Positions 5,305 through 64,000 of a stretch of 64,000 nucleotides of DNA are shown piece after piece (the first letter of the stretch is position 1; each line of letters begins with the position of its first letter). Under the pieces are notes generated by a model. The model saw only the letters and a program-made list of their open reading frames with translations, did no database searches and was not told where the DNA came from. Origin of the DNA: an uncultured virus (IMG/VR IMGVR_UViG_3300036836_000008) (lineage: Duplodnaviria > Heunggongvirae > Uroviricota > Caudoviricetes); IMG/VR virus record IMGVR_UViG_3300036836_000008, one strand, 5' to 3'. The position numbers and the translations under genes were made by a program.

Positions 5305-5620
5305 AATGATTTATTCCTCCGGGAAGTTACCGAAATTGCCGTCAACGGCTATCTTGCCGCTTTGAATGCTCATTACCAAAGCGTTGAAATGAATAGTACA
5401 TAGGTTATGAGGAATAATCATATCCTCGGCGGGCCGGATAGCTACAGAAAATGATGGAGGCATATTACACCCATCAAATCGCTCTAACCCTCTACGCTCT
5501 GCTGCTGTAATCGATGCATAATCTACTGCATCACATTCGATATCGTGAACCTGAACCATATCAGGTGTCAACGGTGTTGCAGTAATAGCTAACAATATAA
5601 CCTTCCTTAACTTATGAGAG

Positions 5621-5712
5621 AGGAAGCACAGGGAGTCGAACCCTCACCCCGGAATTAAACCGCGATGGCCCTGATTTCCAGTCAGGTTAGGCAACCATGC
5701 CAACGTACTTCC
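5621..5712 (-). tRNA. tRNA-Ser(GGA)
   Basis: CCTGA-CTGGAAA-TCAGG, long variable arm, TTCGACT T loop. Confidence 0.8.
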
Positions 5713-5857: not shown

Positions 5858-6236
5858 AATACCCCGAAGGGCAATACTTAATTATATCACAATTAGTCGT
5901 CTTGCTCTACTAGTTGTAAGGTTACATCTGGATCAGAATAAAGCCAATTTAGTGTCTCAGCAGGATCACTCTCTGCAAGTTTACGATCAGCATCTAGCTG
6001 CTCTTCAAAGGTAACGTTTTGTAGGTCATCCAGATAATACATACCTCTTATAGTTACCTCTACCCACCTACCCATCAGCCGGTGAAGTGGTTAACGAGAG
6101 CGATGATGGCCCAAAGTACAACACCAACGACTGTTAGCCAAAGTACAACACTTAGAATCCAAATCTTACCGAAGTTACGGAAGATCCATTCAAATGCCTT
6201 ATCCAAAACGTTTCTCCTAAAATTAGTTTACTTGCG

Positions 6237-6318
6237 TGGAAGTGGTGGGGCTCGAACCCACGTGGACCAACTACGGCATTATAATCCCCTGTTTATAAGA
6301 CAGGACCGATACACTTCC
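6237..6318 (-). tRNA. D-armless tRNA-like RNA, anticodon TAT (Ile)
   Basis: GGAAGTG/CACTTCC-A acceptor, 7-nt linker instead of D arm, CCTGT-CTTATAA-ACAGG, long variable arm, canonical T arm. Confidence 0.65.
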
Positions 6319-6322
6319 TTGA

Positions 6323-6442
6323 ATCAAGCGGAGGTCTTGCACCTCTCGTACCCTCAGCGCAACTAGTATTTGCTGTCTCCCTCGTGGCCTTTGAAGTCTG
6401 AACGGGGCGCTCCTAGAGGGATCTCCTCTCAGCTCGCTTGAT
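6323..6442 (-). ncRNA. promoter-initiated tRNA-like structured RNA
   Basis: ATCAAGCG/CGCTTGAT terminal stem, GAGG-TGCAAGA-CCTC T-like arm; starts 7 nt below a -10 box. Confidence 0.55.
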
Positions 6443-6448
6443 GTGTCT

Positions 6449-6477
6449 AGCCTAGCATCTGAGGCTAGGTATGTCAA
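6449..6477 (-). promoter_or_regulatory. sigma70-type promoter
   Basis: TTGACA-N17-TAGGCT. Confidence 0.65.
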
Positions 6478-14045: not shown

Positions 14046-14522
14046 TCAAACTCCATGAATAAACCTTTCTATAGCATCCATGTGCTCTGGACGTAGCCCT
14101 CTGTTAGCCTTAGGGCGAATCAACAAAACCCGGCCTGAAGCTTCCAGCTTATCTAATAAATCTCCGAATAAAGGGATCGCCTCGTCGTCTGCCCAAACAA
14201 GCCTGGAACCTGAATCAACAATTGCCTCAGCGGCTCTCTGCTTGTCTGTGATGCTCATAGGTGAGTCAGAGTATGAGTCGAAGTGAGGCAACCCCAAAAG
14301 CTTTTCGATAGCGTCGGTAGAGCCACACCATGTTGTCCCCCAGACGATCTCAATCTTGCCAGATTTGTGAAGATTCCACAACCTTTTCACAAGAGCTGGT
14401 GCCCAGCGAATCCTCCACCCATTACCCATAGCATAAGCTGTGCCTGAGTGTGGAGCTGATGACCATCCTGCCTTGCTGGCATTAAGTACTCCATCAACAT
14501 CTAACAGTAATATAGTCTTCAT
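14046..14522 (-). CDS. HAD-family phosphatase (RNA-repair-type HAD domain)
   Basis: LLLDVDGVLN, WGTTW, WADDE. Confidence 0.8.
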   Translation of the reverse strand: MKTILLLDVDGVLNASKAGWSSAPHSGTAYAMGNGWRIRWAPALVKRLWNLHKSGKIEIVWGTTWCGSTDAIEKLLGLPHFDSYSDSPMSITDKQRAAEAIVDSGSRLVWADDEAIPLFGDLLDKLEASGRVLLIRPKANRGLRPEHMDAIERFIHGV

Positions 14523-16278: not shown

Positions 16279-16353
16279 GGTGAGTAGGGGGAATCGAACC
16301 CAACCTCCAGCGGAGTCACAATCCACTATGCTAACCGTTACAACATACCCACC
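16279..16353 (-). tRNA. tRNA-His(GTG)
   Basis: GTGGA-TTGTGAC-TCCGC, G-1 present. Confidence 0.85.
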
Positions 16354-16354
16354 A

Positions 16355-16439
16355 TGGAGAATAGTAGCAGGACTCGAACCTGCATGAGGAGTAAGCACCC
16401 TACCTCGCTAACGTCTGTCGATTTCGCCATACTATTCTC
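16355..16439 (-). ncRNA. anticodon-less tRNA-like RNA ending in CCA
   Basis: 8-10 bp acceptor, Leu-like D arm, irregular single arm, GCAGG-TTCGAGT-CCTGC. Confidence 0.6.
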
Positions 16440-16565
16440 TTTCGCAATTCTACGAGTATCGATCCTCATATTTTTGCTACTACTAAGTCTAAGATGCTGG
16501 CATTTATTTGTGTATTCATACCCATCAGTTAATCGTTTCAGATACCTACTGATGTCTTAGACAAG

Positions 16566-16977: not shown

Positions 16978-17052
16978 TCTGGGTAGAGGGATTTGAACCC
17001 CCGGCCTCAGCACCCCAAATGCCGCGCGCTGACCAAACTGCGCTATACCCAG
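16978..17052 (-). tRNA. tRNA-Pro(TGG)
   Basis: canonical cloverleaf, CGGCA-TTTGGGG-TGCTG. Confidence 0.9.
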
Positions 17053-17055
17053 ATA

Positions 17056-17170
17056 TAACATCCCTAGAGTCGATAGTTTCCACACAGTCTATCGCTTCTT
17101 CACAACAGCTTCCCTAACAGTGTGGAAGTTAGGTACTGGCAGCGCCGGGTCTTTCACCCGAAGGATGTTA
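17056..17170 (-). ncRNA. kissing-loop structured RNA
   Basis: TAACATCC/GGATGTTA closing, CGGG-TGAAAGA-CCCG, loops TTCCACAC and GTGTGGAA. Confidence 0.6.
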
Positions 17171-17179
17171 AGCTTTACA

Positions 17180-17256
17180 CACAGAGCGTGCTTACCATTA
17201 CACTAAACAGGTCACCCTCAAGGCCCTGCATCCGTACTTACCGGCTCTTCTCTGTG
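17180..17256 (-). ncRNA. circularly permuted tRNA-like RNA
   Basis: CACAGAG/CTCTGTG terminal stem; canonical D arm at 3' side. Confidence 0.45.
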
Positions 17257-17268
17257 CTTCTACGTTCT

Positions 17269-17298
17269 ATCTTACCCTACCTTAGGAGGATCTGTCAA
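17269..17298 (-). promoter_or_regulatory. sigma70-type promoter
   Basis: TTGACA-N18-TAAGAT. Confidence 0.55.
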
Positions 17299-17512
17299 GC
17301 GAAGATGCCAGTCAACTTGTTAGCTATGTAGGTATCCAACTCACTTTGAGACATCTCTGCGGTAGGAGGATAGTCTAGATAAGTAACTACCTTACCGTTG
17401 AAATATATGGTAAGTCTCTTACCTGTCACATTACCGTTCTCAAGAATTTCAACGAAATCTGCTGTAATCATTGCAATTCCTCCTATAAATATCAACTTAT
17501 AAATTGAATCGG

Positions 17513-18157
17513 TCAGAAGGAATTACATTCTCCACCGTTGGCACATACAAGCATACCGATATGGGTGTAGTAATTCAGCAAAGAGAACAGCAAGAAGAAT
17601 CCACCAGAAATCTTCCACATAACACTTGCCAGCATAGCTCCCCAAGGCTTATCTGAAAACCATACAGCCATGGTTCCTATAGCAGCAGCCAGGTATACCA
17701 GACCAAATGTAGTATTCTCCCAGCCCTTGAATTGCCCTGTAATAGGTTCAATATCAGGAGCATCACCTACTAGGTTGAATCTGAAGATTGCCATGGAAAT
17801 AGCAAACAACATAACACCTAGTACAGCAATCAACCCGCGAACTGGCTTCCAATCAATAAGGACTGTGTATCCTGCTGGAGTCATATTCAACCCTCGACTT
17901 AGGAAATATCCTGCAATGACTGCAAGTACACCTAGAAGTAAACTAGGCTCAGCAAATGCGATGTTGATAGGTGGATTAACATGTAGCGGCCATGTTACTG
18001 CCATCATAAAAGATAAAACAGTAAGTGGAATACCCGCTACCAGCAGAGCAATTCCATGCCCTATCAGACGTTGAGTTTTGTACTTAAGAATTACACTAGA
18101 CATTGTTAGAATAACAATTCCAGCTAGCACACCCATCAAGGTGTTGTACAGAATCAT
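17513..18157 (-). CDS. DUF981-like multi-pass membrane protein
   Basis: YNTLMG, TWPL...NIAFAEP, YYTHIG; about 6 TM segments. Confidence 0.6.
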   Translation of the reverse strand: MILYNTLMGVLAGIVILTMSSVILKYKTQRLIGHGIALLVAGIPLTVLSFMMAVTWPLHVNPPINIAFAEPSLLLGVLAVIAGYFLSRGLNMTPAGYTVLIDWKPVRGLIAVLGVMLFAISMAIFRFNLVGDAPDIEPITGQFKGWENTTFGLVYLAAAIGTMAVWFSDKPWGAMLASVMWKISGGFFLLFSLLNYYTHIGMLVCANGGECNSF

Positions 18158-18530
18158 ATATAACCTCCTATATCTTGCAGGAAGCTATATCGGTTAGCGC
18201 CAATTTTCTACGATGAATCTGGCACGAAATGCCGGAGGTAGCTTAAGTACAGCTCTATTTGCCTTAGAATTAAGTTCATAATACTTAGGCGTAGGTTCCT
18301 TACTCTTCGTGGCTCGCTGTCCGTACATATACCGGTTAAGTTTATCGCATGCTGCCTGAGCAGCCGCAATATCCTTATCTAGCTTAGCGAGTTTTGATCC
18401 GATACTCATTGTTATCTCCAACATCTAGGGCAAGCACAATCCTGGCGCTTACCTGTCTGTTTGCGAATACAAGCGTCATGTCTGTTTAGTGAACAGGGCC
18501 AACAATAGTTTATTGCAAACATAATGAATT

Positions 18531-18749
18531 TCATGGTGCGATACCTGTATCCCAAGAATAGTGGTTATCTTCATCTTCAGGGTCACCTTCGTATGCAGAA
18601 ACCCAGTTTTCATACTCATCGCCTGTTAGTGCGCGAACCATCTGATCGATAGTCCAAGTCTTGTGATGAACACTATCAACCTGCCCCCAATTATATGCAA
18701 CTTGGAGTGCAGTTTCGATACGCTCAACCATATCATCATTACTTAACAT
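18531..18749 (-). CDS. hypothetical protein starting at tRNA-like 3' end
   Basis: GQVD..HHKTW.IDQMVRAL, WD.GIAP. Confidence 0.65.
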   Translation of the reverse strand: MLSNDDMVERIETALQVAYNWGQVDSVHHKTWTIDQMVRALTGDEYENWVSAYEGDPEDEDNHYSWDTGIAP

Positions 18750-18750
18750 G

Positions 18751-18884
18751 CGAGGCACTAGGGATTCGAACCCTAATCCTGGGCCACTTTTTCCCTGCTA
18801 CTCCGTTCGATGCCACCCACGGTGGTCTTAGACTACTAGTTTCGCAGGTACTCGGCGGCCCTGTGCTACCATACACTATACCTC
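18751..18884 (-). ncRNA. tRNA-like RNA with 71-nt insertion replacing the anticodon loop
   Basis: D arm, GGGCC/GGCCC stem, T arm TAGGG-TTCGAAT-CCCTA. Confidence 0.65.
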
Positions 18885-18936
18885 TCACTCAGGTAGCTAG
18901 TCTGAGTGCAGCTACAGATTGATCAGATCTGCAACG

Positions 18937-19057
18937 TGGACCGAGAGGGATTCGAACCCTCTTACGCGCGCTCTCTCCTGAAAACTGAAAAGAATAATGT
19001 CACCATTGACTGTGTACATCAGCCTGGAAACCTATTCTACCAGAGTTCGATCGGCCC
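18937..19057 (-). ncRNA. Ala-identity tRNA-like RNA with pseudoknot
   Basis: GGGCCGA/TCGGTCC-A (G3.U70), T arm, AGAATAG/TTATTCT pairing. Confidence 0.65.
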
Positions 19058-19068
19058 TAGTTTTTGCG

Positions 19069-19137
19069 TGGACAACAGTGGATTTGAACCACTCAGGACG
19101 TTCCTCCGAAGAGGAGCCCTGCTCACCTAGATCGCCC
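19069..19137 (-). ncRNA. minimal Ala-identity tRNA-like RNA (tmRNA TLD-like)
   Basis: GGGCGAT/GTTGTCC-A (G3.U70), stemless D loop, UUCG-capped arm, T arm. Confidence 0.65.
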
Positions 19138-19141
19138 TAGT

Positions 19142-19179
19142 GCCGGTTCCTACATTGATTAAAGGGAGGTAAAACCGGC
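19142..19179 (-). repeat. covarying hairpin with anti-SD loop, copy 1
   Basis: GCCGGTT-TTACCTCCC...AATGTA..-AACCGGC. Confidence 0.6.
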
Positions 19180-19187
19180 TGAACTTA

Positions 19188-19673
19188 TTACCTTAATAGG
19201 AACCAAGTACCACACCTATTCCACTTTGACTCATTACAGTCTTTGCAAGCCCTAACAAAATTATACCAAATATTAGATCCACCCTTACTCACAGGAAAGT
19301 AATGATCATCGTGCATAATAGGTTTTACTGCCCCACAGTACCTACAGGAATCCTTAGCGATGGCTTTTCTATATTCTCTAGAAATTAAAGCATCTTTGGG
19401 ATCTAACTTGAGAAGACGGTTTTTATACACAGATTTATAGTAACGATTTAATTCAGGATTAGCTTTCCTGTACGCTGCCTTATAAGACTTAATATCTTCA
19501 GCATTAGCCTCTCTATAGGCTTTACGTTTAACTAATACTGTGTCTCTATTTTTAACATAGTAGGTTTTGTTGTAGTTCTGCCTACATTCTTTGCAAGTGT
19601 TTCTACGCCCGTTGCCATCCTTGGCAAAACTGTCCAGTGATTTAGAGACACCGCACTTATTACAAGTTTTCAT
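19188..19673 (-). CDS. HNH endonuclease
   Basis: CxxC N-terminus, CRYCG..DHYFP..GG.N...N...AC..CN. Confidence 0.9.
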   Translation of the reverse strand: MKTCNKCGVSKSLDSFAKDGNGRRNTCKECRQNYNKTYYVKNRDTVLVKRKAYREANAEDIKSYKAAYRKANPELNRYYKSVYKNRLLKLDPKDALISREYRKAIAKDSCRYCGAVKPIMHDDHYFPVSKGGSNIWYNFVRACKDCNESKWNRCGTWFLLR

Positions 19674-19752
19674 GTCACTCCTAGTAGGGTAGGAAGGGAC
19701 AGGCCCTACCCTGTCCCTAACCCATCTTACTACAGAAGTAAGACAATTTCAA

Positions 19753-19786
19753 CTCAGTTCATACATTTTTGGGAGGTAAAACTGAG
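19753..19786 (-). repeat. covarying hairpin with anti-SD loop, copy 2
   Basis: CTCAGTT-TTACCTCCC..AATGTA..-AACTGAG. Confidence 0.6.
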
Positions 19787-20215
19787 CCAACTCCGTCCCT
19801 GGTGCTTCTAGTCTAACACATCGGTTCGTACTGTCAAGCTCTACCGCATACCTGCTTGTGGAGGGTTAACCTTAATCATAGTATCGTAGGTAATTCCCGC
19901 AGGTTGAATAGGAAGCTCTACAGGCGTGTAGTATTCTGGGTTCCTAGACTGGGATGCAAAATCAAGTGCATCCTGCTCGCTAGCAAATACGCCATACTCG
20001 GCCATGTACTTGTTCAGATAAAAGAGAATCCATACTGTCTGCATGCTCATCAGCCTATACCATACTCGACAGACTGTCAAGGCTTCTTTCGCTTCTGCTT
20101 GCTGACATTGCTGTTGCCGTGATCAGGATTGCCCGCAGGTCTTGATCTACCTGTTGGGTGACAGTTCAAGCATGTGCCCATTTTATTCAAGAAAGCCGCA
20201 CAACGAGGACAGATA

Positions 20216-20659
20216 TCACTTTTCGCCATTAGCTCTACCCTCATCTCTACGCCTGATTTTCTCAGCATCGTAATGGATAGTCTCTGTCGGTATGCCAGCA
20301 GCCTTAGCTGCGTTACGGCAGTGTAGCGTGCCCCTAGAATTGTCTCTGAGGAACGCTAGGCAGGCATCAGGCATGCTGCGTACCATCCGCATATTACGCT
20401 TTATTCCAGCGCTGCGTCCATGCATCGCCCAATCAGCCTCATAGATTTCGATTTTGCACTTAAGTACATCTCGTGCGAATCTATCAGCTAAGAAATCTGC
20501 TCCACGAGGACAACCACCATGAACTAGCGTAAACCAGTTGATAGGACCAGATTCATATTCAGGATGATCCTTGACCCACTCTAGAATAACTCTAGTGATT
20601 TCTTCAACTATAGTATCATAGTCATCCCAATCACGAGAGCCTGTAATTAATAGTCTCAT
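20216..20659 (-). CDS. SLOG/DUF2493 (YspA-like) protein
   Basis: LITGSRDW, VHGGCPRGAD, AG..RN..M, SRGT. Confidence 0.8.
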   Translation of the reverse strand: MRLLITGSRDWDDYDTIVEEITRVILEWVKDHPEYESGPINWFTLVHGGCPRGADFLADRFARDVLKCKIEIYEADWAMHGRSAGIKRNMRMVRSMPDACLAFLRDNSRGTLHCRNAAKAAGIPTETIHYDAEKIRRRDEGRANGEK

Positions 20660-20746
20660 AAGTCTCCATTAAGCCATAGAAACAGCAATAGCCCTAACCC
20701 TACTAGGATCAGAGCTATACCAAAAATCATTACTACAGTGCTCATG

Positions 20747-20848
20747 CTACCATCTATCTATAGCTCGATCACCTATGCCGCCTAGGTGGGGGCAATTTCG
20801 TCCATACCTCAGACGGCAGTATACTGCTGCAATAAAATGCTTTAACAT
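20747..20848 (-). CDS. 33-aa peptide starting at tRNA-Glu 3' end
   Basis: MLKHFIAAVYC...; stop followed after 1 nt by the next ATG. Confidence 0.4.
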   Translation of the reverse strand: MLKHFIAAVYCRLRYGRNCPHLGGIGDRAIDRW

Positions 20849-20849
20849 G

Positions 20850-20924
20850 TAGAATCGACGGGATTCGAACCCGCATCATCCTGATTGAAAGTCAGGGGAC
20901 TTAGTCCATTTAGTCTACGATTCC
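20850..20924 (-). tRNA. tRNA-Glu(TTC)
   Basis: CCTGA-CTTTCAA-TCAGG. Confidence 0.9.
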
Positions 20925-20928
20925 ATGG

Positions 20929-21037
20929 CCCTATCTGGCTGGCCTTGTCCAGCGTTGAGCTATCACCTCAACTGGTCTTGAGAGTACTTTAGTCTGAACG
21001 TGATAGGCTCAATTCATTTCCTCTACACCACATAGGG
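20929..21037 (-). ncRNA. structured RNA with long central arm
   Basis: CCCTAT/ATAGGG, TTGAGC(C)TATCAC/GTGATAGCTCAA, GCTGG/CCAGC. Confidence 0.45.
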
Positions 21038-28303: not shown

Positions 28304-28553
28304 ATATTATCTTGTAATGCTTTGAACCAGCCAAACTGAACGGCTGTCCTTCTTGTGTGGCAGTTAGCACATCTTACCACACACTTTGCAATCTCGTCAA
28401 GCATCTTAGGCCAAGAAAACCCACCCTTAACCATGTGAGCAATATTATACTTCTTTTGCTTTTGGTTTCAAGTTTGTTAGAATACATCCAGTACATACGC
28501 ATATCACAGCGCCCACATGGACAAGTAAATTACTGTGTATTCTAAGTTTAGCA

Positions 28554-28655
28554 AGATAAATGAAGGAATTGAACCTTCGAGCGGGCCGTCGCCCTATTCG
28601 CCTTTGACTTGAACCGTTCTCAACAGGAATCGAACCTGATTACTCCCCATTTATC
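28554..28655 (-). ncRNA. double T-arm tRNA-like RNA
   Basis: GATAAAT/ATTTATC acceptor-like stem; CAGG-TTCGATT-CCTG and GAAGG-TTCAATT-CCTTC. Confidence 0.6.
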
Positions 28656-28664
28656 CATCTTACG

Positions 28665-28737
28665 TGGAGCCACGGGGAGTCGAACCCCGTCCTGAAGTTT
28701 GCAAAACTTCCGTGCCAACCCTTAACACCTTGGCCCC
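28665..28737 (-). tRNA. tRNA-Ala(TGC)
   Basis: G3.U70, GAAGT-TTTGCAA-ACTTC. Confidence 0.9.
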
Positions 28738-28988: not shown

Positions 28989-29648
28989 TCAGTCTAGCAG
29001 CAGGCCGTAAAGATCGCAACCCTTGAGCTTAACGATGACACGATCACCCTTACGGTTGAATAGAGGCATAGATGGAGTACCTACCATACCTTCTGCGTCC
29101 TTGAAATCCTTCGCTATGGCAGAAATCAACTCAGTTGCAGACATCCACTTGATAGCTGCACGTAGAGTACCTTCCCAAACTACAGGTACTACATTGATTC
29201 CAAGAGAATCAGCAATCTCCTCTACCTTATCACGCATAAGCCACCAACCATCGATGTAAATGTCGAATAAAATAAATGACTTATCTGTTCGGTAAAGACC
29301 GCCTCCCTTTTGGATTCCTGCGCCGTAACCCTCACCATACAGAGTTACGGGTGTTGCACCAAAAGTTTGTTCCATAAGCTCTTCAGGAAACATCTCAGTT
29401 AGAGCCTCTAGAAGACCGGGAGGAAATTGTGCCTTATCGGTACGGCCACGGAATTCAGGCTTATGCCCATCCCAGATTACACGGATGTTAGTTCCGTCAA
29501 TCTTTTCAGTAAAGGTCCACACATTATCTGCTAAGTAAGCAAACTCAGGAGTTGACCAATCCCAAGGAATAAGCTTATTCTTATTAGGGCCTGATACGTG
29601 GCGCTTGAACGGGCCGGAGATCTTGTGGTATTCCTTCATTTCGTCCAC
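28989..29648 (-). CDS. RNA ligase (Rnl2-like adenylation domain)
   Basis: TEKIDGTN, LYGE, FILFDI, EGMV, VKLK motifs. Confidence 0.85.
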   Translation of the reverse strand: MDEMKEYHKISGPFKRHVSGPNKNKLIPWDWSTPEFAYLADNVWTFTEKIDGTNIRVIWDGHKPEFRGRTDKAQFPPGLLEALTEMFPEELMEQTFGATPVTLYGEGYGAGIQKGGGLYRTDKSFILFDIYIDGWWLMRDKVEEIADSLGINVVPVVWEGTLRAAIKWMSATELISAIAKDFKDAEGMVGTPSMPLFNRKGDRVIVKLKGCDLYGLLLD

Positions 29649-38920: not shown

Positions 38921-39470
38921 TGCCTTCTCTTTCCATGATTGCGTGAACTTCAGATTCTACATGAGCTATATCTGAATCATTCCAGATCTCGTAGTCTCTA
39001 TATGGGAACACATCACGAGATTCGGATGCGTGACCATCTGATTCTACACCAGGGCGCTCGATCCACACAATAGCTCCACCGATCTTCTCTACAAATTTCG
39101 CCTCGTTAACGAATCTGCAATCGGTGACTACATAGCGTGTAGCAGGATGAGCCATATCAGGAAAACGCTTATCAACGATATCTACCCAAACATTTTCACC
39201 ATAAAAATTCCTACCAGCTTCGGTGCCAATAACCTGAAGAAGCCTACGGATTTCAGGAATTTCACGCTTAACAAGGTCCCATCCATAATGCTCTACTAAA
39301 GCAGATAGGCGAGAAACACCTTCAGGTACAATAACGATAGGGTCGATAATCAAAGCCATTTCACGTACAGCATCAGCAAATGCGACTTTAGTAAAGCCAT
39401 ACTGCTCAATCAGCACACTAGCTGCGGTATCTTTACCACTCCCCTTAAGACCACTAAACGCTACCAGCAC
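38877..39470 (-). CDS. deoxynucleoside monophosphate kinase
   Basis: GLKGSGKDT, FAD, LQ..GTE.GR, DCRF.NE, HASE. Confidence 0.9.
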   Translation of the reverse strand: MLVAFSGLKGSGKDTAASVLIEQYGFTKVAFADAVREMALIIDPIVIVPEGVSRLSALVEHYGWDLVKREIPEIRRLLQVIGTEAGRNFYGENVWVDIVDKRFPDMAHPATRYVVTDCRFVNEAKFVEKIGGAIVWIERPGVESDGHASESRDVFPYRDYEIWNDSDIAHVESEVHAIMEREGIERRGLAETLSATD

Positions 39471-61618: not shown

Positions 61619-64000
61619 TTAGAAAAGTAGCTGTGTTCTGTAAAGAGCATTTCTGATGGAATCTCCACCACGCTCAGGTGCAGGGTTATTAATAATAATG
61701 TCGCCAAAAGTAGTTCCATTATCTGTTGAATTGTTTACTACGCTGCTGGCCGCAGGTGATAGTGATCTAGGTGTTGACGGCAATGGAGTATTCATACTTG
61801 GCAACCCTCCACCGATATTCATCATATTCATAAGATCAACCAAACCACCTTGACGGAATGCCCAGTGTAGGTGCGCATTCCCGCCAGCCCAATTGTGCTG
61901 ATTCCAAACAGCTCCAGTATAACGATGAGGCTTACCGTTGTGCAGGTTAAGATCCTGGAATGGAGTAATAAGTTCCTTAGTTCTTGAACCATAGTTCGCT
62001 CTAATCCATGCGGCAACCTCACGGCTAGGGTGAAGGTCAACTGCGCGACCTAATGCGTGGTAAGATCTGTTTCCTGACAAAGTTCTGGAATTTGGTCGGT
62101 ATCCAGAAATTAAAGGCAAACCTGGGAATTGCTTACGCAATACAGTCATCTGCCAACGCCAGCCACCAGAGCCTGAGCCTTCTCCTAGGCCACCCATATT
62201 GGTAGCCCAATCTTTATCGATTAAGGTATTACCAACAGTAGTAGGGAACGGCCACACGGCTCCACCACGTGCAAAGTGATGTCCACCTGTAGCACAAGCT
62301 ACACACTTGCCGCTATGTACTGCTCCACCGGACTTGAAATTAACCATGTTGTCATCAGGTAATGCCTCAGAAATTGCAGCCCTATCCAACTTACGGGTAC
62401 GGATAGCTTCCATAATAGGCATGCCGTAGTACTCGACAGCATCAGTAGGCTGAACGAATTCTCCATTAGACAACCAAGCCTGAATAGAGTCAGATGTTCT
62501 GGTCCCAGCACCCCAAACAGGTCCACCGTTCTTGAATCCTGGAATTCCGTAACCGTCACCCCAACCCTTCATACCGGCCTGAGCCTTATTCTGCTCAACT
62601 TCACGCTGAGCTTCAGTCAAGCTCTTACCGCTCTGCAAGGATGCCTGAAGTGCCTTAAGGTCTTGCATCTGCTGCCATACAGCAGCATAGTTGGTTACCT
62701 TAAGGTTGGTTGCAACATCCTCAGGAACATCTCCATAAGTATCGATAAGTTTCTTGGTTTCCTTATTGGTACCAAAAGCCTTATCTGCTTCCTTCTGAAG
62801 CTCCTTAATTCTGTCACGGTGACGCTTAGTAGCTTCTTCCATAGGAACACCAGATGCGATATCCTGTAGATAAAGTTCACGAGTAGCCTGAGCGGCAGCC
62901 TGTAGCGCATCACGATTACGTAGACCTTCACGAGTCTTTCTGCTTAAAGACTTGCCGTTAGATTCTACGGCATCCCTTAAGGTTAAAAGACTTGATTGCC
63001 AGGTTTCAGAAGCTTCGTTTGCACTGATTAGTACACCCTTCTCCTGGTTGATGATATCGCGCAATGCGCGAGACCTATCCGCAGCAGTAGATGTAGCACT
63101 AGACATGACATCCAGTGCATTAGACAAAGTAGTAATTCTACTTTGAACTTCACCGATAGCTACAGAATTATCTACCTGACCTTGAGTCATTCCAGCTAGG
63201 CGCTCCTGATATGTCAAGGACATACTGGATGCACGCTCAAGCACCTTAGTTTGAGTATCCTGAGCATTAGCTACTTCATTAATAGAATCCTTGAACTTCT
63301 GAGCTTCGATACGCTGCTCGCGGAATGGCAATGCCGCAGTAGGTCCACCAGCATCAAATGCAGCGATCCTTAGGCGTTCCAAGTTTGCGATCTGTGCATC
63401 AAGTACAGAATTAACTCTGTTAAGATCCTGCTCTTGGTTGTTTAGGGCACCAGAAACTGTGCGCAGAGTAAGTCCATACTGCGCAGCATTTCCAGCAATG
63501 TCACGGAACTTCTCATTAGTTTCCGCTAGGTTATTAACGTTTTCTGTATTTCCTTGTGAAAGATCTCCATATGCATTCTTCAATGCTAGGAATGCTTCTT
63601 TAGTATCCCTAGCTTCTTGCTTCTGATCGTTAAGTTTTCCAATCAATGCTCCAGCGGCTACTGTAGCTCCGATAAGAGCTAGTCCCCATGGACCTCCTAG
63701 TAGACTTGTCAATCCACTAAGTGCACCTCGTGCCAAACTACCTGCACTGCGTACACCATTTAATGCACGACTAAACCCGACAACCTGAGGTGTTGCACGA
63801 GAAGCAGCATTTCCAGTAGCTTCCGTAGCACGTCCCGCGCCACCATCAACTCCTCCAAGAGGAGTTGGAATCCTATTAGGCAGATTTGATTGTCCTGTAG
63901 TCTGCAAACCAGCTACTCCGCGAGCAGCATCAGCAAATGCACCAGACAGGTTTCCTCTGTTACGAGACATCCAAGTAAAGAAATCCCACAGCTTGAACAA
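61619..64000 (-). CDS. tape measure protein (3' part) with C-terminal M15-like peptidase domain
   Basis: Ala-rich helical repeats, GG.V.G.GT.TSDSI.A.LSNGEFV, SGYR..SYH..GRAVD...HLH. Confidence 0.85.
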   Translation of the reverse strand: MFKLWDFFTWMSRNRGNLSGAFADAARGVAGLQTTGQSNLPNRIPTPLGGVDGGAGRATEATGNAASRATPQVVGFSRALNGVRSAGSLARGALSGLTSLLGGPWGLALIGATVAAGALIGKLNDQKQEARDTKEAFLALKNAYGDLSQGNTENVNNLAETNEKFRDIAGNAAQYGLTLRTVSGALNNQEQDLNRVNSVLDAQIANLERLRIAAFDAGGPTAALPFREQRIEAQKFKDSINEVANAQDTQTKVLERASSMSLTYQERLAGMTQGQVDNSVAIGEVQSRITTLSNALDVMSSATSTAADRSRALRDIINQEKGVLISANEASETWQSSLLTLRDAVESNGKSLSRKTREGLRNRDALQAAAQATRELYLQDIASGVPMEEATKRHRDRIKELQKEADKAFGTNKETKKLIDTYGDVPEDVATNLKVTNYAAVWQQMQDLKALQASLQSGKSLTEAQREVEQNKAQAGMKGWGDGYGIPGFKNGGPVWGAGTRTSDSIQAWLSNGEFVQPTDAVEYYGMPIMEAIRTRKLDRAAISEALPDDNMVNFKSGGAVHSGKCVACATGGHHFARGGAVWPFPTTVGNTLIDKDWATNMGGLGEGSGSGGWRWQMTVLRKQFPGLPLISGYRPNSRTLSGNRSYHALGRAVDLHPSREVAAWIRANYGSRTKELITPFQDLNLHNGKPHRYTGAVWNQHNWAGGNAHLHWAFRQGGLVDLMNMMNIGGGLPSMNTPLPSTPRSLSPAASSVVNNSTDNGTTFGDIIINNPAPERGGDSIRNALYRTQLLF

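Follow-up and report, generated by a model that had tools for sequence, protein, structure and literature searches.

Bacterial transfer-messenger RNA (tmRNA) contains a tRNA-like domain (TLD) with an alanine identity set, a T arm and a GG-containing D-loop analogue that contacts the T loop; the domain has no variable loop and no anticodon. The major determinant for alanyl-tRNA synthetase (AlaRS) is the G3.U70 pair of the acceptor stem, and minihelices made of an acceptor and a T arm are charged without an anticodon, an acceptor identity reportedly worked out by Hou and Schimmel in 1988 and by Francklyn and Schimmel in 1989. Natural tmRNA derivatives of about TLD size that have no tag frame are found in organelles, namely reduced jakobid mitochondrial tmRNAs and plastid forms of ~65 bp (PMC11915505), which shows that such reduced molecules are maintained. 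For phages, the literature that we searched gave a single tag-less TLD RNA, the TLD-only tmRNA of Mycobacterium phage DS6A (JN698994 28478-28560), a recognisable tmRNA fragment; a TLD-only molecule strongly inhibits tmRNA, perhaps via titration of SmpB (PMC4131195), and the DS6A TLD-only form inhibits the endogenous tmRNA in E. coli (PMC11915505). We analysed a 64,000-nt stretch of DNA (the window) that is part of a large phage genome, that of an uncultured member of the Caudoviricetes (IMG/VR IMGVR_UViG_3300036836_000008). Within the tRNA gene cluster of the phage, the minus strand of the window encodes RNA1, a small RNA with the architecture of a TLD, followed by a longer tRNA-like RNA, RNA2:

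19069..19137, minus strand: RNA1, an anticodon-less tRNA-like RNA of 69 nt, with G1 at 19137 and A73 at 19069

19058..19068, minus strand: spacer of 11 nt between RNA1 and RNA2, which starts with C74-G like the trailers of the phage's own tRNAs

18937..19057, minus strand: RNA2, a tRNA-like RNA of 121 nt, with G1 at 19057 and A73 at 18937

An original prediction, made from the sequence alone, had given both RNAs a 7-bp acceptor stem starting with GGG, G3.U70, A73 and a perfect T arm, with neither D stem nor anticodon loop, and reading the minus strand directly bears out this anatomy. The RNA1 acceptor, GGGCGAU/GUUGUCC, is paired at 7 of 7 positions, with G1-C72, G2-C71, G3.U70 and two more G.U pairs, and is followed by A73 and then C-G; C74 is encoded and CCA is not. 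The place of the D arm is taken by 9 unpaired nucleotides (CUAGGUGAG), a D-loop analogue with GG. The central hairpin that follows has 11 bp, a 2-nt AC bulge and the UUCG cap that had been claimed for one of the two elements, and the T arm, AGUGG-UUCAAAU-CCACU, adjoins this hairpin directly, with 0 nt between them and no variable loop. The minimum free energy (MFE) fold has the same layout, including the UUCG cap (-28.5 kcal/mol, z -2.09), with 7 of 200 shuffles folding equally well. ARAGORN called neither a tRNA nor a tmRNA at RNA1 or RNA2, with no tag frame, and Rfam searches of the window gave no tRNA or tmRNA match to either RNA at gathering score or at E<=10. Both RNAs fail as tRNA cloverleaves, which have a D stem and an anticodon arm with a 7-nt loop at the standard distance, and neither is matched by RF00005.

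We compared both RNAs with all 26 tRNA genes called by ARAGORN in the window. The complete set of G1-C72, G2-C71, G3.U70 and A73 is present only in tRNA-Ala, RNA1 and RNA2, G3.U70 itself being found in four of the 26 calls (Ala, Trp, Asn-att and Cys), and the comparison upholds the claim that both RNAs combine the alanine identity set with the absence of an anticodon. The non-alanine calls with G3.U70 are odd in length or anticodon: the Trp call has 86 nt, the Asn call has the anticodon att and the Cys call has 80 nt. The acceptor identity set and T arm are common to RNA1, RNA2, tRNA-Ala and alanine minihelices, whereas tRNA-Ala differs in having a D stem and an anticodon arm, both of which are missing in the two RNAs. 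Beyond the identity set, there is little sequence likeness between either RNA and the phage's own tRNA-Ala (28664-28737). An encoded CCA is missing from 24 of the 26 phage tRNAs and the trailer starts with N73-C in 25 of them, as it does for RNA1 and RNA2. Charging is plausible because AlaRS does not read an anticodon.

Four related viral contigs (L003-L006), one of which is a complete 135.6-kb genome with direct terminal repeats, were reached through an SbcD-like protein (66-74% identity). The order tRNA-Glu ... tRNA-Pro, tRNA-His is retained locally in all four, and an RNA1 homolog occupies the equivalent place in each. A covariance model (R1) built from five sequences, those of the window and L003-L006, finds precisely one copy in the window and one in each of the four whole related records. 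Metagenomes were searched more widely with a pattern in which the helix, the T loop and C71-C72 were the only constraints and positions 1-7, 70 and 73 were free, so that conservation of G3.U70 and A73 was not built in. This gave 10 loci, nine of which were confirmed by R1; L009 matched the pattern and was dropped since R1 did not confirm it. RNA1 is thereby represented by 14 hits, which reduce to nine distinct rows and six distinct cores. The original prediction had named loss of G3.U70 in homologs as grounds for rejecting it; G3.U70 together with A73 is present in 9 of 9 distinct RNA1 rows (six cores) and in 3 of 3 RNA2 rows. G1-C72 and G2-C71 are likewise found in all nine RNA1 rows, where A73 and C74 are invariant.

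In an alignment that was fitted to R1, and is to that extent biased towards the structure of the model, 93.4% of 196 RNA1 cells are paired, compared with 82.4+/-1.3 in shuffles (none of 500 reach the observed value) and 35-45% with slid partners. Both partners change in 7 of the 22 pairs, including four of the five T-stem pairs. The elbow pair 19:56, formed by position 5 of the D analogue and position 3 of the T loop, is G-C in six rows and A-U in three (three cores each), and the G beside position 5 of the D analogue faces U in 9 of 9 rows, so the most likely fold on this evidence is L-shaped with a closed elbow. The lower helix, GCAG(G/C)GC...ACGU(C/G)CUG, hardly varies, and this includes its G.U pair and AC bulge; cleavage by RNase P would not call for such conservation, which suggests that the helix has a specific ligand. 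The occurrence of one copy per relative, together with compensatory change in three helices and a tertiary pair, points to purifying selection on the structure of RNA1. Taken at the level of comparative sequence analysis, RNA1 is a real, conserved and functional small RNA gene of the phage.

RNA2 has an acceptor (GGGCCGA/UCGGUCC) paired at 7 of 7 positions, with G1-C72, G2-C71 and G3.U70, followed by A73-C-G, and a T arm (GAGGG-UUCGAAU-CCCUC) separated from the acceptor by ~85 nt. The unconstrained MFE fold (z -3.13) disrupts the T arm, whereas the consensus fold retains it. In this fold a 5-nt linker leads from the acceptor to a single long, irregular hairpin capped by a 7-nt loop, and 11 single-stranded nucleotides link the hairpin to the T arm. 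The pseudoknotted insert originally predicted for RNA2 is not recovered, the insert being one irregular hairpin and a linker; a script found no helix of at least 4 bp among the unpaired columns in all three rows, except for one that involves the 3' trailer. In the alignment from which this structure was itself derived, 93.5% of 108 cells are paired, compared with 85.9+/-2.0 in shuffles (0 of 500), and both partners change in 7 of 36 pairs (1 of 500 shuffles), among them acceptor pair 5:68, from C-G to U-A. R1 fails to detect RNA2, which is therefore not a copy of RNA1. In L004, L005, L006, L014 and L018, RNA1 is followed directly by the hairpins that precede RNA3 (a further tRNA-like RNA, described below), with no RNA2, and in L013 the slot is filled by a different tRNA-like RNA with a non-alanine acceptor. 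This slot RNA (L013 1328-1397) has a normal D arm and a T arm and its anticodon stem is closed by ~5 nt only. L016 has ~520 nt inserted between RNA1 and RNA2 (180-700), with an apparent ORF (open reading frame) on the reverse strand. The description of the two RNAs as a tandem pair is not supported in the sense of a unit, as most relatives either lack RNA2, which is optional, or have something else in its place. RNA2 is best seen as an accessory with a longer arm and an unchanged acceptor identity, located in a variable slot; it too is probably a functional RNA gene, less certainly so than RNA1. We considered and rejected RNA2 as an intron-bearing tRNA or one with a long variable arm, as it has no D stem, an arm of ~24 bp, apical triplets that differ by lineage (GUA versus AGC) and a pyrimidine at the equivalent of position 37.

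How closely do these RNAs resemble the described TLDs? In the RF00023 consensus for tmRNA, a 7-bp acceptor is followed by ~10 unpaired nucleotides that include GG and by a helix separated from the T arm by 0-1 nt, and RNA1 has the same layout. The TLD layout that had been predicted for both RNAs therefore holds for RNA1, with its 9-nt D analogue containing GG and a helix leading straight into the T arm, and does not hold for RNA2, which has no conserved GG and an 11-nt linker. Likewise, RNA1 fits the layout of a TLD-only phage RNA (65-85 nt, with an alanine acceptor, D analogue, closed helix and T arm and nothing else), which RNA2 fits loosely. RNA1 further shares with the TLD of bacterial tmRNA the alanine identity set, the T arm, the contact of the GG-containing D-loop analogue with the T loop and the lack of a variable loop and an anticodon. 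In contrast, the pseudoknots, message part and tag frame of tmRNA are missing from RNA1, at 69 nt, and from RNA2, which has no conserved pseudoknot, and neither RNA encodes CCA. Kinship with tmRNA, which was to be judged by the score of the Rfam tmRNA covariance model, finds no support, since RNA1 and RNA2 are unmatched, whereas the TLD-only RNA of DS6A, used as a positive control, scores 43.2 bits. RNA1 is thus TLD-like in its predicted shape and not a demonstrable relative of tmRNA.

The DS6A RNA (PMC4131195, PMC11915505) resembles RNA1 in being encoded by a phage, in its size (~70-83 nt for the two), in its 7-bp acceptor with G3.U70, its 9-nt D analogue, the closed helix that leads into the T arm, A73-C and the lack of an encoded CCA and of a tag frame. 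It differs in being a recognisable tmRNA (RF00023, E 4e-15), with CGAC.../...GCAC flanking the helix, and in lacking both the conserved helix with G.U pair and AC bulge, which is particular to RNA1, and the ~85-nt insert and 11-nt linker before the T arm, which are particular to RNA2. The organellar forms are like RNA1 in size and in having no tag frame; they differ in that the same organism has an SmpB gene and that the plastid forms are reported to be closer to other plastid tmRNAs than to tRNAs (PMC11915505), whereas no Rfam family of the tmRNA clan matched RNA1 at E<=10 in the window. SmpB (PF01668) and AlaRS (PF01411) were not found in the four relatives or among the scanned ORFs of the window, and a full tmRNA was not found in the four relatives or the window, so any such partner of RNA1 must be a host protein.

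A further comparison is provided by Streptomyces phage Jay2Jay, in which an element of 80 nt without an annotated feature (KM652554 87505-87584; L029 1501-1580) lies in the tRNA array of a ~133-kb phage. In common with RNA1 this element has a G3.U70 acceptor (GGGUUUG/CAAAUCC), A73, 10 unpaired nucleotides, a hairpin (8 bp), a T arm and no anticodon. It differs from RNA1 in being nearer to tmRNA, with 33 bits against RF00023 (below the cut-off), and is missed by R1 at E<=1. Jay2Jay also has a full tmRNA (97949-98233, 96.5 bits), whereas the window's relatives have none. In phage Magritte (OR553905, about 73536-73613; L025 1466-1543) an unannotated anticodon-less tRNA-like element is flanked by tRNA-Cys and tRNA-Ala; apart from G3-C70 and a U.U mismatch, it has almost the same acceptor as the adjoining tRNA-Ala. 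An 82-nt tRNA-like gene at L040 (G005 38952-39033) has an alanine-type acceptor (GGGGCUG/CAGUUCC), A73, CAU in the anticodon loop and an abnormal D region.

RNA1 is part of a conserved non-coding array, which in the relatives runs in the order TTGACA-N17-TAnnnT site, leader hairpin, RNA1, optional slot, hairpin with a CUGAUCA loop, second hairpin, RNA3 and a small ORF. In transcript order, the window contains the following features around RNA1 and RNA2:

19810..19837, minus strand: match to a sigma-70-like promoter, TTGACA-16-TAGACT, with 10 of 12 positions matching; the region overall is not enriched for such sites

19751..19800, minus strand: distal leader copy, which closely follows the promoter-like site and consists of GGACGGAGUU and then a hairpin whose loop has ACCUCCC

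19188..19673, minus strand: HNH homing-endonuclease gene (HNH families) between both copies of the leader hairpin

19142..19179, minus strand: proximal leader hairpin directly 5' of RNA1, with ACCUCCC and AUGU in the loop and compensatory stem changes in relatives, judged by eye

18886..18929, minus strand: pair of short conserved hairpins that separate RNA2 from RNA3, one with a CUGAUCA loop and then one with a 7-bp stem that abuts RNA3; compensatory changes judged by eye

18751..18884, minus strand: RNA3, a tRNA-like RNA of 134 nt with acceptor, D arm, T arm and a conserved insert of ~75 nt that replaces the anticodon loop

18531..18749, minus strand: conserved small ORF starting 1 nt after RNA3, with homologous ORFs in L004, L006 and L018

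The TTGACA-N17-TAnnnT site precedes the whole array in the relatives (located by search in L004 and by eye in the others), and the leader between this site and RNA1, present there in one copy, comprises GGA(C/U)GG(A/G)GUU and a hairpin with ACCUCCC and AUGU in its loop. The leader hairpin looks like the insertion site of the endonuclease gene. We observed that the ACCUCCC of the leader loop resembles an anti-Shine-Dalgarno sequence. A short ORF running from the leader into RNA1 was rejected as a candidate coding sequence since its frames and lengths vary among relatives and the window reads AUG-UAG. RNA3 has an acceptor that is not of the alanine type (G73) and an insert with the motifs AGUAG, GCGAAA and GAGUA; RNA3 is conserved in all eight sequences compared, 11 of its 14 predicted pairs show compensatory change, and it gave no match in Rfam (E<=10). 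In the window and in the relatives, the discriminator at the 3' end of RNA3 is separated by 1 nt from the start codon (ATG) of the following ORF, which is not preceded by a Shine-Dalgarno sequence. Two other candidates at RNA3 were discarded: a tag-like frame ending at its UAGUAR motif, which is not conserved as a frame, and a hammerhead-like CUGAUGA just before RNA3 in L003, which is not conserved in other relatives. Two anticodon-less tRNA-like elements elsewhere in the cluster, at 16353-16440 and 28548-28662 (both minus strand), have terminal stems of 9-10 bp and T arm(s); one immediately precedes tRNA-His and the other immediately follows tRNA-Ala. In the window (20077-20268, minus strand), L004 (about 6390-6455) and L005 (about 6068-6226), the promoter of the RNA operon is closely preceded by small basic ORFs that encode a zinc ribbon (CxxC...CxNC).

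The 26 ARAGORN tRNA genes and all long ORFs of the window are on the minus strand. PHROG and Pfam matches include a DNA polymerase, a DnaB-like helicase, RecA/UvsX, an SbcCD-like nuclease, tail proteins, several HNH endonucleases, an RNA ligase and a HAD_SAK_2 domain; the Pfam scan covered 96 of the 101 retained minus-strand ORFs of at least 60 aa, four of the remaining five being scanned with PHROGs, and 61619-64000 lay outside the scan. The window has about 28 tRNA genes, and two probable genes were missed by ARAGORN: a Ser(GGA)-like gene with a long variable arm at about 5605-5700 (minus strand) and an 82-nt Rfam tRNA match at 6237-6318 (minus strand) with UAU in the anticodon-like loop. 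Small stable tRNA-like RNAs that are co-transcribed and co-processed with the phage tRNAs occur in the tRNA clusters of phages T4 and T5. A possible tRNA-repair toolkit lies beside the tRNA array, comprising the RNA ligase (PF09414, 28989-29648), the HAD_SAK_2 domain known from RNA-repair proteins (14046-14522) and a YAcAr/SLOG protein (20216-20659), all on the minus strand.

The closest match to the DNA polymerase in the phage collection is that of Microbacterium phage Magritte (37%). The same collection gave no match to window 17000-21000 by megablast, to 18700-19200 by blastn or to the small ORF after RNA3 by tblastn. Exact 26-nt strings from the 3' halves of RNA1 and RNA2 gave 0 matches each in viral contigs, a related-locus search with the 214-aa neighbour protein found none, and the RNA1 pattern gave 0 matches in genome contigs, hence neither a bacterial or prophage copy nor a clue to the host. 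The lack of CCA in the tRNAs, the apparently leaderless ORF start and the nearest phage relative together hint, tentatively, that the host may be actinobacterial.

We propose, with a probability of roughly 40%, that RNA1 is a host-processed, alanine-chargeable RNA that cannot decode and that acts on SmpB or ribosome rescue. RNA1 would be transcribed from the sigma-70-like promoter within the conserved non-coding operon, excised by host tRNA-processing enzymes (RNase P at the 5' end and a 3' nuclease) and completed by the CCA-adding enzyme, as for the CCA-less tRNAs of the phage. Host AlaRS would then charge it with alanine via G3.U70, without reading an anticodon. As it could not decode, it would enter the ribosome only at an empty A site together with SmpB, like the TLD of tmRNA. 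Since it carries no message, it would vie with the tmRNA of the host for SmpB, EF-Tu and stalled ribosomes, so that trans-translation is inhibited or diverted, or at most donate one alanine. Competition with tmRNA is the best-supported of these outcomes: a TLD-only molecule and the DS6A form inhibit tmRNA in E. coli (PMC4131195, PMC11915505).

Several observations weigh against this proposal. The evidence ends at the fold, and processing, charging and SmpB binding are steps that we infer. G3.U70 is also present in three non-alanine tRNA calls of the same phage. RNA1 and RNA2 have no match to RF00023 or another tmRNA family at E<=10 in the window, nor is there one to RF00023 in L014 and L016; in the four relatives, RF00023 gave 27 matches at E<=0.001, several of which proved on inspection to be ordinary tRNAs scoring 14-20 bits, and the RNA1 loci are not among them. 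The tmRNA signature beside the T arm (CGAC.../...GGAC in the RF00023 consensus) is missing from RNA1. R1 scores the DS6A TLD at 22.6 bits, yet gives 22.1 bits to an ordinary tRNA-Ala of phage Jay2Jay, so the likeness to DS6A is generic to alanine acceptors and T arms and we rejected this match as evidence of kinship. The RNA1 family is shallow, its six cores coming from one phage clade; pair 7:66 is a C.A mismatch in 7 of 9 rows, and one event may account for the 19:56 switch. RNA2 is confined to two lineages, with blastn homologs only in L003, L016 and L017 (the L003 lineage), and its fold rests on two effectively different sequences and was derived from the same alignment. Finally, RNA3 and the elements at 16353-16440 and 28548-28662 show that further anticodon-less tRNA-like elements without alanine identity are present in the cluster, which argues for a more general role of the tRNA shape here. 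A bolder version of the proposal, in which RNA1 would be a convergent, independently evolved TLD analogue rather than a trimmed tmRNA, an alanine-charged, anticodon-less adaptor, made from a dedicated non-coding operon, with which one clade of large phages of soil bacteria would seize or block SmpB-dependent rescue, with the G.U/AC-bulge helix as dock and RNA2 and RNA3 as further modular 'top-half tRNA' effectors, is speculative and in our view rather unlikely.

The main rival explanation is that the tRNA shapes are processing punctuation, in other words cut signals for host RNase P and 3' tRNA nucleases by which a long transcript is divided into stable pieces and mRNA ends are set, with the mini-RNAs as by-products. 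RNA1 does follow a promoter-like site and leader, RNA3 ends 1 nt before an ORF start without a Shine-Dalgarno sequence, where cleavage would leave a nearly leaderless mRNA, non-alanine tRNA-like elements flank real tRNAs, and the slot between RNA1 and RNA3 may be empty or hold either RNA2 or another odd tRNA-like RNA. However, RNase P needs only the acceptor/T-arm stack, which leaves unexplained why G1-G3 and U70-A73 are invariant although changes are tolerated in pairs 4-6 and in the T stem. Nor does it account for covariation at the 19:56 elbow pair or for a lower helix that, G.U pair and AC bulge included, is almost constant, and no ORF start adjoins RNA1. We consider punctuation rather unlikely, and less probable than our proposal; the operon context supports it. 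Even less weight is given to decay, according to which RNA1 and RNA2 would be remnants of tRNA-Ala with scrambled D and anticodon arms, kept by linkage or as targets of homing endonucleases. The presence of RNA1 once per relative and the compensation seen in three of its helices and at a tertiary contact, the seven compensatory pairs of RNA2 between lineages that are ~60% identical in the insert, and the dissimilarity of both RNAs to the phage's own tRNA-Ala beyond the identity set make this very improbable, despite the HNH gene inserted in the region (window 19188-19673), the ~520-nt insert between RNA1 and RNA2 in L016, the patchy distribution of RNA2 among relatives and the odd ARAGORN calls in the window (Asn with anticodon att, 86-nt Trp and 80-nt Cys).

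A role as decoy or ligand outside ribosome rescue may also be envisaged, in which RNA1 would soak up host factors or anti-phage effectors directed at the acceptor ends of tRNAs, tie up AlaRS or EF-Tu, supply alanine to a non-ribosomal transfer or be the RNA partner of a phage protein. The conserved lower helix and its bulge, which are not in the tmRNA consensus, have the appearance of a protein-binding site, and the phage invests in tRNA defence and repair, with the RNA ligase (28989-29648), the HAD_SAK_2 domain (14046-14522) and ~28 tRNA genes; in the window (20077-20268), L004 and L005 there are also small zinc-ribbon ORFs a short way upstream. These ORFs, however, are upstream of the promoter-like site and are not conserved in every relative, no specific partner is identified, and a general acceptor-end decoy would not need the alanine set. 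No AlaRS family was found in the relatives, and the Pfam scan of the window gave no aminoacyl-transferase family, FemAB and L/F-transferase not having been searched for in the relatives. On balance this explanation appears improbable.

A phage RNA that consists of a TLD and nothing else is already known from DS6A; as judged from the comparisons made here, what is new is the same architecture without detectable tmRNA ancestry, with a conserved helix of its own and in a dedicated non-coding operon. Together with the alanine-type element of Jay2Jay and the G3-C70 element of Magritte, RNA1 raises the possibility that anticodon-less 'top-half tRNAs' are a common class of phage RNA that is missed by annotation. 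If these RNAs serve as processing signals, tRNA punctuation would organise phage transcripts and possibly produce leaderless mRNAs. If RNA1 is charged and engages SmpB or ribosomes, it would represent a new route by which phages manipulate translation quality control.

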